This document shows positions 34,198-40,365 of a DNA stretch of 64,000 bases, piece after piece. The first letter of the stretch is position 1; every line of letters begins with the position of its first letter. This stretch comes from Escherichia coli (lineage in GTDB: Bacteria; Pseudomonadota; Gammaproteobacteria; Enterobacterales; Enterobacteriaceae). The notes under the pieces were generated by a model, which was not told the origin of the DNA, ran no database searches, and was given only the letters and a program-made list of their open reading frames with translations. The position numbers and the translations under genes were made by a program. The DNA is taken from NCBI RefSeq assembly GCF_011045215.1, contig NZ_CP049201.1; one strand, 5' to 3'.

Positions 34198-35829
34198 TTA
34201 GTGCTTCACAATGTACATATTCCGGGTATAGGTATTATCCAGCGGATCTTTGCCGGTATAGCCACCAACCCACGGTTTCACCAGACGCGCATTCACGTAG
34301 TAATAAACAGGAACAATGGCCGAATCCTTATCCAGCTGTTGTTCTGCTTTAGTGTACAGAGCTGTGCGCTGCGCCTCGTCAGTCACTTTCAGCGTTTCCG
34401 CCATAATGCTGTCAAAGGCCGGGCTCTTATAATGCGCCGTATTCATCGAGCTGTTCGACAGCATGGTGTTCAGGAAGGAAGTTGGTTCGTTGTAGTCTGC
34501 ACACCAGCCTGCACGGGCCACATCAAAAGTGCCCTGGTGACGGGTGTCGAGGAACGTTTTCCACTCCTGGTTAACCAGTTTGACGTTTACACCAATGTTT
34601 TTCTTCCACAATGAAGAGGCTGCAATCGCCAACTTTTTATGCAGATCGGAGGTGTTATACAACAGGTTGATGGTCAACGGTTTGTCTGCGGTATAACCCG
34701 CTTCAGCCAGCAGTTTTTTTGCTTCTTCGTTACGTTTTTCCTGGCTCCAGCCAAACCATTCCGGCTGAGTCAATTTTGCGCCATCAGTATACGGTGGAGT
34801 GTAACCATAGGCGGGCATGTCGCCCTGCGCTTTCACTTTATTAACAATGATATCGCGGTCCATACCTAGTTTCAGTGCGGTACGCACACGCACATCGTTG
34901 AATGGCGGTTTCTGGTTGTTAATTTCGTAATAGTAAGTGCACAGGTATGGATCAACGTGAACTTCGTCCGGGATCTCTTTTTTCAGCTTCTGGAACAATT
35001 CGATCGGCATATTGTTATACGTCATGTCGATTTCACCACTACGGTAGCGGTTGACATCGGTAACTTCAGAAGCAATAGGCAAATAGGTTACCTGGTTAAT
35101 AACGGTTTTCGCGTTGTTCCAGTAGGTCGGGCTGCGTTCAAGAACGATTCGTTCGTTTACGACCCAATCTTTTAAGGTATAGGCACCGTTGGTGACGATA
35201 TTACCAGGCTGGGTCCATTTTTCGCCGAATTTCTCGATAGCGGCTTTTGGCACCGGTGAAGTTGATGGGTGAACAAGTAATTTATAGAAGTACGGAACGG
35301 GTTCACTTAAGGTGACTTCTAATGTGTGATCATCAATAGCTTTCACGCCGAGATCGGTAATCGGTTTTTTCCCTTCAAGAATTTCATCAATACCGGCGAT
35401 ATGCCCATATTGCAGATAACTGGCATACGGAGAAGCAGTGTTCGGATCAACAGAACGTTGCCAGCTATACACAAAGTCTTGTGCTGTGACTGGCGTGCCA
35501 TCAGACCATTTCGCATCTTTACGCAAATGGAAGGTCCAGACTTTCGCGTCTTTATTATCCCAGGATTCAGCGACGCCAGGTGCTGGATGACCGTCAAGAT
35601 CGCTGACCAGTAAGCCTTCAAACAGGTCTCGGCTGATATTAGACTCCGGAACACCTTCAATTTTGTGCGGATCTAATGACTGAACTTCTGAACCATTGTT
35701 ACGTACCAGCGTTTGTTTTTCCGCCAGTGTGACGCCTGCGGGTACATCAGCTGCCAGCGCGACATTCCCTGCCATTAGCGCAGCCAGAACGCCAGCTGCT
35801 ACTAAACTTCTCTTGGTGATGTTGGTCAT
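34198..35829 (-). CDS. oppA: periplasmic oligopeptide-binding protein OppA
   Basis: 543 aa with signal peptide. Confidence 0.95.
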   Translation of the reverse strand: MTNITKRSLVAAGVLAALMAGNVALAADVPAGVTLAEKQTLVRNNGSEVQSLDPHKIEGVPESNISRDLFEGLLVSDLDGHPAPGVAESWDNKDAKVWTFHLRKDAKWSDGTPVTAQDFVYSWQRSVDPNTASPYASYLQYGHIAGIDEILEGKKPITDLGVKAIDDHTLEVTLSEPVPYFYKLLVHPSTSPVPKAAIEKFGEKWTQPGNIVTNGAYTLKDWVVNERIVLERSPTYWNNAKTVINQVTYLPIASEVTDVNRYRSGEIDMTYNNMPIELFQKLKKEIPDEVHVDPYLCTYYYEINNQKPPFNDVRVRTALKLGMDRDIIVNKVKAQGDMPAYGYTPPYTDGAKLTQPEWFGWSQEKRNEEAKKLLAEAGYTADKPLTINLLYNTSDLHKKLAIAASSLWKKNIGVNVKLVNQEWKTFLDTRHQGTFDVARAGWCADYNEPTSFLNTMLSNSSMNTAHYKSPAFDSIMAETLKVTDEAQRTALYTKAEQQLDKDSAIVPVYYYVNARLVKPWVGGYTGKDPLDNTYTRNMYIVKH

Positions 35830-36565
35830 TGTTTTTGGACTCCCTCATTATAATTACTGGTATTAACCAGCATGTGTAATCCCGGATTGGGACCCTGCAC
35901 AGGCTCGGAGACTTTCTGCTGTCAGGTTACTTTATCGTTACGGATTGCTATCACCGACTTTATTTATTCTGGTGATTCAGACGATCACCTTATGTCGATT
36001 CGTACTGTGTCTCCCCTGTCGAGACACATTATTCTTTCGCGACGCTCTTTAATTGTTAATTATTCTCATTACCAATAAAGAATCGCCTGACGGTTGCCCG
36101 GAAAGTACCAAATGCGGTTCTTACTCGCCAATACATTTTGCAAAATTGTTAAGCAATTCTCTTTTATTGACCGTATCAGAATCTATAGCTTGCATCCATG
36201 TCTTAACAAACATCTTTAAATTCAATCAAATAGAGATTGGTTAAGCATGTCTATCTTTTCTGATTACAGTTCCAGTAGTGAAATGCACAATAATTTAACA
36301 ATTGATTATTATTTAGCACTTTCCTCTACCAAAGGCAGTGGAATTACTAATATCATTTCAATTATTCTTCAGCAAGCCCAGGATTATGATGTGGCGAAAA
36401 TAACATGATGGTGAGGAGAAGCAGTTAAGGAAATCCTTATAACTAACTGTAATTTGAGAAGAATATTTTTACCTATTCCTTTTGCTTTTGATAACTGCGC
36501 GGGAACAAAGTAAAAATAATGACGAAGTAAACGGAGCATGGCAGCTCCGTTTCATTTGAAAGGAA

Positions 36566-37213
36566 TTAATTAAGCAGGCCGGGGAAAATCCCCTTAATAC
36601 CAGTAACGATAAATTCAATCCCCAATGCCATCAGCAATAGCCCCATAATACGCGTAATCACGTTGATGCCGGTCTGGCGTAAAACCCGTACCAGCCACGG
36701 TGCCATGCGGAACAATCCCCAACAACATAAAGCGAACAATGCAATAGCCACAAAGAAACCAAACAGATAGCTAATGCTGTGATAACGCGTACCCCAGACG
36801 ATGGTAGAACTGATCGCCCCTGGCCCCGCCATCAACGGCAACGCCAGTGGCACCACACCAATGCTTTCACGTACCGCGGTTTCTGATTTTTCTTGCTTGT
36901 TCTGTTTATCCTCTCCAAGCTTGCCGCTGATCATCGACATCGCTATCGTCACCACCAGGATGCCCCCGGCGATACGGAACGAATCAATTGATATACCAAA
37001 AAGTTGTAGAATCGTGTCGCCGAGAAAAAGCGAGATCCACAAGATAATGGCCACAGACAGGTTGGCTGTAAGGTTAGTTTTGTTTCGCGCTGCCGCTGTC
37101 TGATAACTGGTCATGCTGATAAAGACGGGAATAATCCCTACCGGGTTGACCAGCGCAAATAACCCGATGAAAAATTTGAAGTAAACGGGAAAATCAAAAA
37201 GGGTCTGAATCAC
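36566..37213 (-). CDS. ychE: MarC-family inner membrane protein YchE
   Basis: 215-aa polytopic membrane ORF upstream of opp. Confidence 0.9.
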   Translation of the reverse strand: MIQTLFDFPVYFKFFIGLFALVNPVGIIPVFISMTSYQTAAARNKTNLTANLSVAIILWISLFLGDTILQLFGISIDSFRIAGGILVVTIAMSMISGKLGEDKQNKQEKSETAVRESIGVVPLALPLMAGPGAISSTIVWGTRYHSISYLFGFFVAIALFALCCWGLFRMAPWLVRVLRQTGINVITRIMGLLLMALGIEFIVTGIKGIFPGLLN

Positions 37214-37689
37214 GGTTAGCTCCGAAGCAAAAGCCGGATAATGTTAGCCATAAATAAGGTTGAAAAGACGCGCTGACAATACGCCTTTTGACAGCATTTT
37301 TCACCTCCTAACTACTTAAAATTGCTATCATTCGTTATTGTTATCTAGTTGTGCAAAACATGCTAATGTAGCCACCAAATCATACTACAATTTATTAACT
37401 GTTAGCTATAATGGCGAAAAGCGATGCTGAAAGGTGTCAGCTTTGCAAAAATTTGATTTGGATCACGTAATCAGTACCCAGAAGTGAGTAATCTTGCTTA
37501 CGCCACCTGGAAGTGACGCATTAGAGATAATAACTCTAATGTTTAAACTCTTTTAGTAAATCACAGTGAGTGTGAGCGCGAGTAAGCTTTTGATTTTCAT
37601 CGGTTAAGCAAATCATCACCGCACTGACTATACTCTCGTATTCGAGCAGATGATTTACTAAAAAAGTTTAACATTATCAGGAGAGCATT

Positions 37690-40365
37690 ATGGCTGTTAC
37701 TAATGTCGCTGAACTTAACGCACTCGTAGAGCGTGTAAAAAAAGCCCAGCGTGAATATGCCAGTTTCACTCAAGAGCAAGTAGACAAAATCTTCCGCGCC
37801 GCCGCTCTGGCTGCTGCAGATGCTCGAATCCCACTCGCGAAAATGGCCGTTGCCGAATCCGGCATGGGTATCGTCGAAGATAAAGTGATCAAAAACCACT
37901 TTGCTTCTGAATATATCTACAACGCCTATAAAGATGAAAAAACCTGTGGTGTTCTGTCTGAAGACGACACTTTTGGTACCATCACTATCGCTGAACCAAT
38001 CGGTATTATTTGCGGTATCGTTCCGACCACTAACCCGACTTCAACTGCTATCTTCAAATCGCTGATCAGTCTGAAGACCCGTAACGCCATTATCTTCTCC
38101 CCGCACCCGCGTGCAAAAGATGCCACCAACAAAGCGGCTGATATCGTTCTGCAGGCTGCTATCGCTGCCGGTGCTCCGAAAGATCTGATCGGCTGGATCG
38201 ATCAACCTTCTGTTGAACTGTCTAACGCACTGATGCACCACCCAGACATCAACCTGATCCTCGCGACTGGTGGTCCGGGCATGGTTAAAGCCGCATACAG
38301 CTCCGGTAAACCAGCTATCGGTGTAGGCGCGGGTAACACTCCAGTTGTTATTGATGAAACTGCTGATATCAAACGTGCAGTTGCATCTGTACTGATGTCC
38401 AAAACCTTTGACAACGGCGTAATCTGTGCTTCTGAACAGTCTGTTGTTGTTGTTGACTCTGTTTATGACGCAGTACGTGAACGTTTCGCAACCCACGGCG
38501 GCTATCTGTTGCAGGGTAAAGAGCTGAAAGCTGTTCAGGACGTTATCCTGAAAAACGGTGCGCTGAACGCGGCTATCGTTGGTCAGCCAGCCTATAAAAT
38601 TGCTGAACTGGCAGGCTTCTCTGTACCAGAAAACACCAAGATTCTGATCGGTGAAGTGACCGTTGTTGATGAAAGCGAACCGTTCGCACATGAAAAACTG
38701 TCCCCGACTCTGGCAATGTACCGCGCTAAAGATTTCGAAGACGCGGTAGAAAAAGCAGAGAAACTGGTTGCTATGGGTGGTATCGGTCATACCTCTTGCC
38801 TGTACACTGACCAGGATAACCAACCGGCTCGCGTTTCTTACTTCGGTCAGAAAATGAAAACGGCTCGTATCCTGATTAACACCCCGGCTTCTCAGGGTGG
38901 TATCGGTGACCTGTATAACTTCAAACTCGCACCTTCCCTGACTCTGGGTTGTGGTTCCTGGGGTGGTAACTCCATCTCTGAAAACGTTGGTCCGAAACAC
39001 CTGATCAACAAGAAAACCGTTGCTAAGCGAGCTGAAAACATGTTGTGGCACAAACTTCCGAAATCTATCTACTTCCGCCGTGGCTCCCTGCCAATCGCGC
39101 TGGATGAAGTGATTACTGATGGCCACAAACGTGCGCTCATCGTGACTGACCGCTTCCTGTTCAACAATGGTTATGCTGATCAGATCACTTCCGTACTGAA
39201 AGCAGCAGGTGTTGAAACTGAAGTCTTCTTCGAAGTAGAAGCGGACCCGACCCTGAGCATCGTTCGTAAAGGTGCAGAACTGGCAAACTCCTTCAAACCA
39301 GACGTGATTATCGCGCTGGGTGGTGGTTCCCCGATGGACGCCGCGAAGATCATGTGGGTTATGTACGAACATCCGGAAACTCACTTCGAAGAGCTGGCGC
39401 TGCGCTTTATGGATATCCGTAAACGTATCTACAAGTTCCCGAAAATGGGCGTGAAAGCGAAAATGATTGCTGTCACCACCACTTCTGGTACAGGTTCTGA
39501 AGTCACTCCGTTTGCGGTTGTAACTGACGACGCTACTGGTCAGAAATACCCGCTGGCGGACTATGCGCTGACCCCGGATATGGCGATTGTCGATGCCAAC
39601 CTGGTTATGGACATGCCGAAGTCCCTGTGTGCTTTCGGTGGTCTGGACGCAGTAACTCACGCCATGGAAGCTTATGTTTCTGTACTGGCATCTGAGTTCT
39701 CTGATGGTCAGGCTCTGCAGGCACTGAAACTGCTGAAAGAATATCTGCCAGCGTCCTACCACGAAGGGTCTAAAAATCCGGTAGCGCGTGAACGTGTTCA
39801 CAGTGCAGCGACTATCGCGGGTATCGCGTTTGCGAACGCCTTCCTGGGTGTATGTCACTCAATGGCGCACAAACTGGGTTCCCAGTTCCATATTCCGCAC
39901 GGTCTGGCAAACGCCCTGCTGATTTGTAACGTTATTCGCTACAATGCGAACGACAACCCGACCAAGCAGACTGCATTCAGCCAGTATGACCGTCCGCAGG
40001 CTCGCCGTCGTTATGCTGAAATTGCCGACCACCTGGGTCTGAGCGCACCGGGCGACCGTACTGCTGCTAAGATCGAGAAACTGCTGGCATGGCTGGAAAC
40101 GCTGAAGGCTGAACTGGGTATTCCGAAATCTATCCGTGAAGCTGGCGTTCAGGAAGCAGACTTCCTGGCGAACGTGGATAAACTGTCTGAAGATGCATTC
40201 GATGACCAGTGCACCGGCGCTAACCCGCGTTACCCGCTGATCTCCGAGCTGAAACAGATTCTGCTGGATACCTACTACGGTCGTGATTATGTAGAAGGTG
40301 AAACTGCAGCGAAAAAAGAAGCCGCTCCGGCTAAAGCTGAGAAAAAAGCGAAAAAATCCGCTTAA
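37690..40365 (+). CDS. adhE: bifunctional aldehyde/alcohol dehydrogenase AdhE
   Basis: 891 aa; ALDH and Fe-ADH domains. Confidence 0.97.

Follow-up and report, generated by a model that had tools for sequence, protein, structure and literature searches.

The region between ychE and oppA in Escherichia coli contains a short open reading frame (ORF), and we asked whether this ORF represents a protein-coding gene or is open for some other reason. The window analysed is a 64,000-nucleotide stretch of E. coli contig NZ_CP049201.1 (assembly GCF_011045215.1), and all coordinates are those of this window (Table 1).

Position and length of the ORF

The ORF was found on the plus strand and consists of 53 sense codons followed by TGA, extending from the ATG at 36247 to the stop codon at 36406 to 36408. 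An earlier sequence-only reading had placed the frame at 36247 to 36411 with 54 codons; the frame is present and the hand translation then given is identical to the computed one, but the end had been set 3 nt past the stop codon and the sense codons number 53. The same reading described a 736-bp AT-rich interval that mostly serves as the long oppA leader, and both points were borne out, with the interval spanning 35830 to 36565 at a GC content of 0.37 and the 510-nt 5′ untranslated region (UTR) from the P1 promoter occupying 69% of it. The reading was silent on (i) the strand relationship, (ii) the overlap with P1, and (iii) a 98-codon frame annotated by PGAP in most E. coli. As ychE and oppA are both encoded on the minus strand, the plus-strand ORF is antisense to both and thus lies antisense to the oppA leader and is not part of it.

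The length of the ORF was compared with 2,000 dinucleotide-preserving shuffles of the 736-bp spacer. The view that the frame stands open in otherwise stop-dense DNA did not survive this comparison, as the ORF is only the third longest within the ychE-oppA spacer (68, 63, 53, and 51 aa) and an ORF of at least 53 aa was present in 67% of the shuffles, or in 43% when an ATG start was required. The length is therefore within the chance expectation, where that of a small protein gene might be expected to exceed it. Two further features of the spacer were recorded. Its ORFs of at least 49 aa number four compared with a shuffle mean of 1.4, a count of four being reached in 4% of the shuffles. In addition, a hairpin directly after the ychE stop codon is probably the ychE terminator, an assignment that we infer and for which the scanner made no call.

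Table 1. Coordinates of the ORF, of the oppA promoter and leader elements, and of the flanking genes in the window.
Feature	Position	Strand	Details
oppA coding sequence	34198..35829	-	annotation
oppA 5′ UTR from P1	35830..36339	-	
RNase E site (+341) and MicF pairing site	35947..35999	-	RNase E site at 35999; MicF +372 to +393 at 35968-35947, AAUAAAUAAAGUCGGUGAUAGC
oppA P2	36094..36131	-	-35 TTGGCG 36126-36131; 18-bp spacer; TGG-TACTTT extended -10 36102-36110; start ~36094 (+246)
In-frame upstream extension	36112..36246	+	open from ATG 36112 in most E. coli, giving a 98-aa ORF, WP_001211521.1 / WP_001211520.1
Reported ORF	36247..36408	+	53 codons plus TGA, MSIFSDYSSSSEMHNNLTIDYYLALSSTKGSGITNIISIILQQAQDYDVAKIT; annotated in some genomes as hypothetical protein WP_000051910.1
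Leader block	36284..36327	-	44 nt, +13 to +56, AGAnGAAUGUGCUAAAUAAUAAcCAAUUGUUAAAUUUU; near-invariant in 76 species; supplies the middle of the ORF
IS5U target CTAA	36313..36316		leader +24 to +27; insertion site in MG1655
oppA P1 transcription start	36339	-	+1 = A, within ~1 nt; deduced from published primers
P1 extended -10, TGATATTAG	36347..36355	-	hexamer 36347-36352, ending 8 nt before the deduced start
P1 -35 hexamer, TTGCTG	36370..36375	-	position relative to the deduced start site
Conserved block upstream of P1	36376..36408	-	-37 to -69; holds TGTTATTTT and (T/C)CACA
Putative ychE terminator	36530..36551		hairpin AACGGAGC-ATGGCA-GCTCCGTT
ychE coding sequence	36566..37213	-	annotation

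The ORF overlies the oppA P1 promoter and early leader

The P1 promoter and long 5′ UTR of E. coli oppA were described by Igarashi et al. (1997), as cited by Carrier, Lalaouna and Masse (RNA Biol 2023; PMC9988348). The published features of the leader comprise P1 (+1), P2 (+246), an RNase E site at +341, and a MicF pairing site at +372 to +393, with the P1 start site and promoter activity determined by primer extension and P1-lacZ fusions (PMC9988348). These features were placed on the window through the primer sequences in Table S3 of that paper. The T7-oppA template, which 'starts at the cleavage site (+341)', begins with ATCGACATAAGG and maps to 35999 on the minus strand, so the P1 +1 lies at about 36339. 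Two constructs agree with this position, as the P1 fusion has its reverse primer ending at 36339 and the construct that carries P2 alone begins at 36336. The elements upstream of the deduced start have the spacing of a sigma-70 promoter (17 ± 1 bp and a proper distance to the start site), with TTGCTG and TGATATTAG separated by 17 bp. The plus-strand ORF, opposite oppA, thus overlies positions -69 to -1 of P1 together with positions +1 to +93 of the leader. The published P1 and leader are therefore the same DNA as the ORF locus, with the offsets of P1, P2, the RNase E site, and the MicF site all consistent on the window, although that work was directed at the minus strand, sense to oppA, and the ORF lies on the other.

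The -10 hexamer of P1 was found to differ between the window and the K-12 strains of PMC9988348. The window carries the wild-type TATTAG, as do 4,844 of 5,426 E. coli genomes, whereas the K-12 strains carry TATTAT, which is nearer the consensus and occurs in 341 genomes. Among the 25 TATTAT genomes listed, nearly all are K-12 laboratory derivatives (MG1655, BW25113, DH1, MC4100, and NEB5-alpha), and NCM3722 is not one of the 25. Judged from this distribution of alleles, TATTAT appears to be a promoter-up mutation that became fixed in the laboratory lineage.

Regulatory proteins have been reported at this region: two strong Lrp ChIP peaks were found at the oppA promoter (PMC10127797) and the spacer is included in a list of H-NS-associated regions (PMC3946193). 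Upstream of P1, the sequence TGTTA-N6-(T/C)CACA is conserved at 36390 to 36405 on the minus strand, centred at about -58.5 from P1; this CRP-like pattern is a candidate site at a non-canonical distance.

The promoter and leader are conserved across the family, the reading frame is not

To examine the locus in related bacteria, ychE-oppA spacers from 76 species of Enterobacteriaceae (one genome per species) were fetched with a YchE query and aligned with MAFFT. The spacer was 664 to 878 bp in length (median 763) and AT-rich throughout the 76 species, and is thus an old, family-wide feature. Conservation extended to P1 and P2 as well as to the RNase E region and the MicF site. The P1 elements in particular were retained in the orthologous loci: the -35 hexamer was TTGCTG in 44 species, TTGCCG in 21, TTGATG in 8, and TTGCTC in 3, while TG(A/T)TATTAG was found in 75 of the 76 and the 17-bp spacing between the two elements in all of them. 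Within the ORF, the conserved blocks were confined to 36284-36327 and 36340-36408, the latter including the block upstream of P1 that supplies the 'conserved' C-terminus and stop codon of the ORF. The region of the ORF start (36240 to 36279) ranked with the most variable parts of the spacer.

The reading frame was not preserved across the same 76 species. The homologous ORF was intact in one of them, E. coli. Elsewhere, the aligned segment was 160, 161, or 163 nt in most species, the ATG was absent, and one to six in-frame stop codons were present, with the TGA common only to other Escherichia species. Within that genus, one extra nucleotide (CAGCAAG[G]CCC) shifts the frame by +1 in the four species farthest from E. 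coli, and in the nearest species the ATG is replaced by ATA. The sequence-only reading had named frame-breaking differences in close relatives as an observation that would weigh against coding, and their presence favours a non-coding ORF.

Searches at the protein level gave a similar picture. Among 5.8 billion proteins, 51 matches were detected, which were near-identical and either unnamed or from E. coli, Shigella, or Escherichia, with one labelled Enterobacter hormaechei; many were truncated or frame-altered. Neither the 53- nor the 98-codon version matched a Pfam or NCBIfam family at E ≤ 10. When the ORF was compared with other genera by tblastn, the 21 C-terminal residues were 60 to 85% identical. 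This cross-genus similarity amounts to the promoter translated as though it were protein. Many species have some plus-strand ORF over the P1 block (50 to 169 aa, with 169 in Raoultella). The long ones of other genera were rejected as homologues, being unshared within a genus, unrelated in their starts and stops, and out of frame with E. coli over the leader block. This change of frame stems from a length difference of 1 nt close to the start site; consequently, other genera read the conserved leader nucleotides differently (KFNNRLLFSTFI vs NLTIDYYLALSS) and the peptide is not conserved.

The weak tblastn similarity in other genera could also be taken to mean that the ORF is a decayed remnant of an ancestral gene once located between ychE and oppA. 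Such a gene is effectively refuted by (i) the similar length of the spacer and the same regulatory blocks in all 76 species, (ii) the lack of a homologous protein outside E. coli and Shigella among the 5.8 billion searched, and (iii) the confinement of the cross-genus similarity to the promoter block, where it is without codon periodicity.

The ORF has no coding substitution pattern

Substitution patterns were examined within the species by use of nine E. coli-clade sequences. Segregating sites at the first, second, and third codon positions numbered 14, 11, and 15 in the ORF, compared with 7, 0, and 30 in ychE and 10, 3, and 59 in oppA. The pN/pS ratio of the ORF was 0.51 vs 0.02 to 0.03 in the real genes. 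Differences from the window at the three positions were likewise even for the ORF among Escherichia (0.15, 0.14, and 0.14), and in other genera the conserved part of the ORF gave 0.21, 0.28, and 0.28 vs 0.10, 0.04, and 0.51 for ychE. Hence, neither the concentration of change at third positions nor the low pN/pS of a gene was found. The codon-usage score of the ORF was -0.18 bits per codon vs 0.25 ± 0.16 for real genes of the window.

The 53-codon part was intact in all nine sequences of E. coli and its close relatives, and the last 38 codons were invariant. As this invariance extends to the synonymous sites, it points to constraint at the level of the nucleotides and not of the protein. The 44-nt leader block, which also lacks a coding pattern, could be a protein-binding site on the DNA (for Lrp or H-NS) or a site that acts at the RNA level. 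Over the initial ~70 nt of the leader, RNAalifold predicted no consensus structure across the 76 species, so a hairpin does not explain the block; pairings spotted by hand around the P1 start site were likewise unsupported by RNAalifold.

Allelic variation of the frame within E. coli

The spacer was detected in 5,423 of 5,426 complete E. coli genomes at an identity of at least 95%. A PGAP 'hypothetical protein' was annotated under the spacer match in 21 of 30 evenly sampled records (about two thirds). The 98-codon version is called, for example, in the K-12 strains NCM3722 and BW25113, where it starts at the equivalent of window position 36112 and shares its TGA with the reported ORF. In BW25113 (NZ_CP009273.1), it occupies complement(1294859..1295155), and the candidate starts are at 1295155 for the 98-aa form and 1295020 for the 53-aa form. 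In the window, the upstream extension is closed by TAA at 36217 to 36219, which is TCA in K-12 and TTA in some strains; position 36218 is thus A, C, or T in E. coli, which gives TAA, TCA, or TTA in the frame of the ORF. By exact-word searches, the codon 36 haplotype with TAA was found in 447 genomes (including O157:H7 and O145) and that with TCA in 4,522, such that about 83% of complete E. coli genomes have the frame open through the TCA allele. In outgroup Escherichia species, codon 36 is TAA and, therefore, the long frame of 98 codons is the derived state. Among only nine sequences, further stops were found at W43 and Q15.

The database records for this frame are WP_001211521.1 and WP_001211520.1 (98 aa) and WP_000051910.1 (53 aa), all identical to the window ORF in frame and stop codon. 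One genome annotates WP_000051910.1 at exactly the coordinates of the 53-codon ORF, with a single residue difference (I48L). These RefSeq/PGAP entries were called automatically and are backed by no family, domain, or experiment, the WP accessions had no match in the literature, and the curated MG1655 record has no annotation at the site.

Insertion sequences also interrupt the frame. In MG1655, IS5U splits the ORF, parts P1 from oppA, and sits in the most conserved part of the leader; it is absent at the leader site in BW25113, NCM3722, and LS5218. The 2023 study of the oppA leader numbered the leader without IS5 and never mentions the element (PMC9988348). An IS1 insertion was found in another strain.

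These alleles bear on whether the ORF is a young, E. coli-specific de novo gene, encoding a protein of 98 aa in the majority of strains but of 53 aa in those with the TAA allele, from a transcript antisense to the P1 region. The prevalence of the open TCA allele, the existence of PGAP annotation, the derived state of the long frame, and a GGAAAG located 6 nt upstream of ATG 36112 are all in keeping with such a gene. We consider it very unlikely, however, as the flat codon-position profile and the pN/pS of 0.51 indicate a frame that is not under purifying selection, nine sequences contain no fewer than three independent stop alleles, insertions are tolerated (IS5 in MG1655 and IS1 elsewhere), codon usage is poor, and the invariant part is also invariant at synonymous sites. 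The results on expression (see below) are likewise against a gene. A more specific version, in which the TAA-to-TCA change at codon 36 gave rise to a nascent species-specific gene of 98 codons, antisense to P1 and with expression mechanically coupled to P1 activity, is highly improbable; under this version, the window (like O157:H7) would represent the ancestral split state.

Search for evidence of expression

A scan for consensus-like promoters on the plus strand identified none upstream of either candidate start (36247 or 36112), and promoter-like matches in the region were at chance frequency (4 found vs 3.0 expected). Candidate ribosome-binding sequences were limited to a GAG 11 nt before ATG 36247 and the GGAAAG before ATG 36112.

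Translation was assessed from the published RIBO-seq data of O157:H7 Sakai, in which the ORF, located at complement(1743583..1743744), is intact and differs from the window by a single synonymous change. The supplements of Hucker et al. (2017) gave no match by peptide, DNA, or gene name, and a search by coordinates was used instead. The Sakai list of translated intergenic ORFs contains nothing in the ychE-oppA spacer, with XECs164 at 1742550 to 1742657 followed next by XECs165 at 1757510 (PMC5597208). Evidence of translation was thus not found in this one study of a few conditions. Ribosome occupancy had been proposed in the sequence-only reading as a check, and the absence of a translated ORF at the spacer in the Sakai catalogue favours its view of a non-coding frame and argues, together with the lack of an upstream plus-strand promoter in the consensus scan, against the de novo gene. 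Neither oppA nor ychE is named in the text of the Meydan 2019 preprint. The antisense or overlapping ORFs ano, laoB, and pop of EHEC, reported by the Scherer/Neuhaus group, resemble the window ORF in being short, antisense to a functional element, and of O157:H7-type sequence; unlike the window ORF, which is absent from the Sakai catalogue of that group, they were proposed on RNA-seq plus RIBO-seq signal.

The region around ychE yielded three further observations on small ORFs and annotation. The gene of the 17-aa small protein YchT lies at 37244 to 37297 on the minus strand, just upstream of ychE, under the PGAP gene name 'ychE'. XECs164 is a translated 108-nt ORF of the adhE-ychE spacer, at about 37334 to 37441 of the window (PMC5597208). 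Finally, the annotation of Sakai oppA (NC_002695.2, 1744118 to 1745794) extends the 5′ end by 45 nt (15 codons) relative to other records; this start is probably mis-set, as the extra codons would fall in the GcvB/SD region of the leader.

A plus-strand RNA need not be coding. It could be a non-coding antisense RNA, for instance through divergent initiation at the symmetric, AT-rich P1 -10 region and transcriptional interference with P1, with the ORF irrelevant to its role. The P1 -10 region reads TAATAT on the plus strand, and a promoter-like TGCACA-17-TATTAT is present at 36284 to 36312 on that strand. Spurious promoters are common in H-NS-bound regions. The spacer has been reported as H-NS-bound (PMC3946193). 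Such a transcript is putative, with promoter-like sites about as frequent as expected by chance (4 vs 3.0), and any start of this type would be inside the ORF and not upstream of it; we regard an antisense RNA as very unlikely.

Further elements of the oppA leader

The remaining published elements of the leader were also recovered on the window. The P2 start is located 8 nt downstream of a conserved TTGGCG-18-TGGTACTTT. The MicF and RNase E sites are at the published offsets from P1; the MicF site is complementary to the MicF 5′ end in primer EM2982 and falls on the best-conserved part of the spacer, where the block at 35950 to 35959 is 98% conserved and GTCGGTGATAGC is invariant in the variants listed. 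In Salmonella, the homologous oppA leader gives rise to OppX, a 5′ UTR-derived sponge RNA of MicF identified in work of the Vogel lab (as described in PMC9988348). In our alignment, conservation between E. coli and Salmonella includes both P1 and the MicF site, although a stable OppX-like fragment is not observed in E. coli (PMC9988348). OppX is sense to oppA and unrelated to the antisense ORF. A search of Rfam with 35000 to 38000 gave only two matches, both to eukaryotic families and at the level of chance (E = 0.13 and 0.42).

An upstream ORF on the sense strand of the leader was also considered (36251 to 36319, minus strand), which has a GUG start at 36319, 22 codons, and GAGGAAA before the start. 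In most other genera, an AUG is present two codons upstream. This candidate was rejected, since its variable positions are at codon positions 1 and 2 as often as at 3 and its lengths differ.

A probably incidental ORF over a conserved promoter

Overall, the ORF is very probably incidental, its frame being held open by the constraint that acts on oppA P1 and the early leader, and is without a protein product of consequence. With its position over the published P1 start, a conserved promoter, a frame that is not conserved, and substitutions that follow no coding pattern, it can almost certainly be dismissed as a gene, and we infer that it yields no functional protein. The original judgement of 'probably non-coding' is hence supported, with the ORF intact in 1 of 76 species and no translated ORF in the Sakai catalogue.

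How the frame would be kept open can be outlined from the sequence of the P1 block. The P1 and leader DNA is under strong family-wide constraint, imposed on a sigma-70 promoter with an invariant 17-bp spacer and a TGn-extended -10 and on the conserved leader segment. The invariant P1 block places a conserved TAA in two of the three plus-strand frames (within ACTAAT and AAATAACA) and leaves the third free of stops. Given stops in two frames, any plus-strand ORF that crosses the block has to use the remaining one. The open frame across P1 would then be a passive by-product, with the ends of the ORF set by the variable flanks alone; in E. coli, these flanks yield 53 codons (as in the window and O157:H7) or 98 codons (as in most strains), which gene callers sometimes annotate. 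Constraint at the level of the nucleotides accounts for the invariant 38 codons, the PGAP calls, and the tblastn identity. Nonetheless, the intact 53-codon part, the PGAP calls, and the tblastn identity may leave room for translation at a low level.

The biology of the P1 promoter and leader has already been published, and the ORF is not a real feature as a gene. Were the nascent-gene reading true, the locus would show a gene that arose de novo, opposite a promoter, in an event that can be dated. As matters stand, the results call for caution in annotation, as a widespread PGAP 'hypothetical protein' (WP_001211521.1 and relatives) is placed atop oppA P1 with no signs of a gene. The locus also provides a case in which strongly conserved regulatory DNA mimics the conservation of a protein, to the extent of 60 to 85% identity by tblastn across genera.
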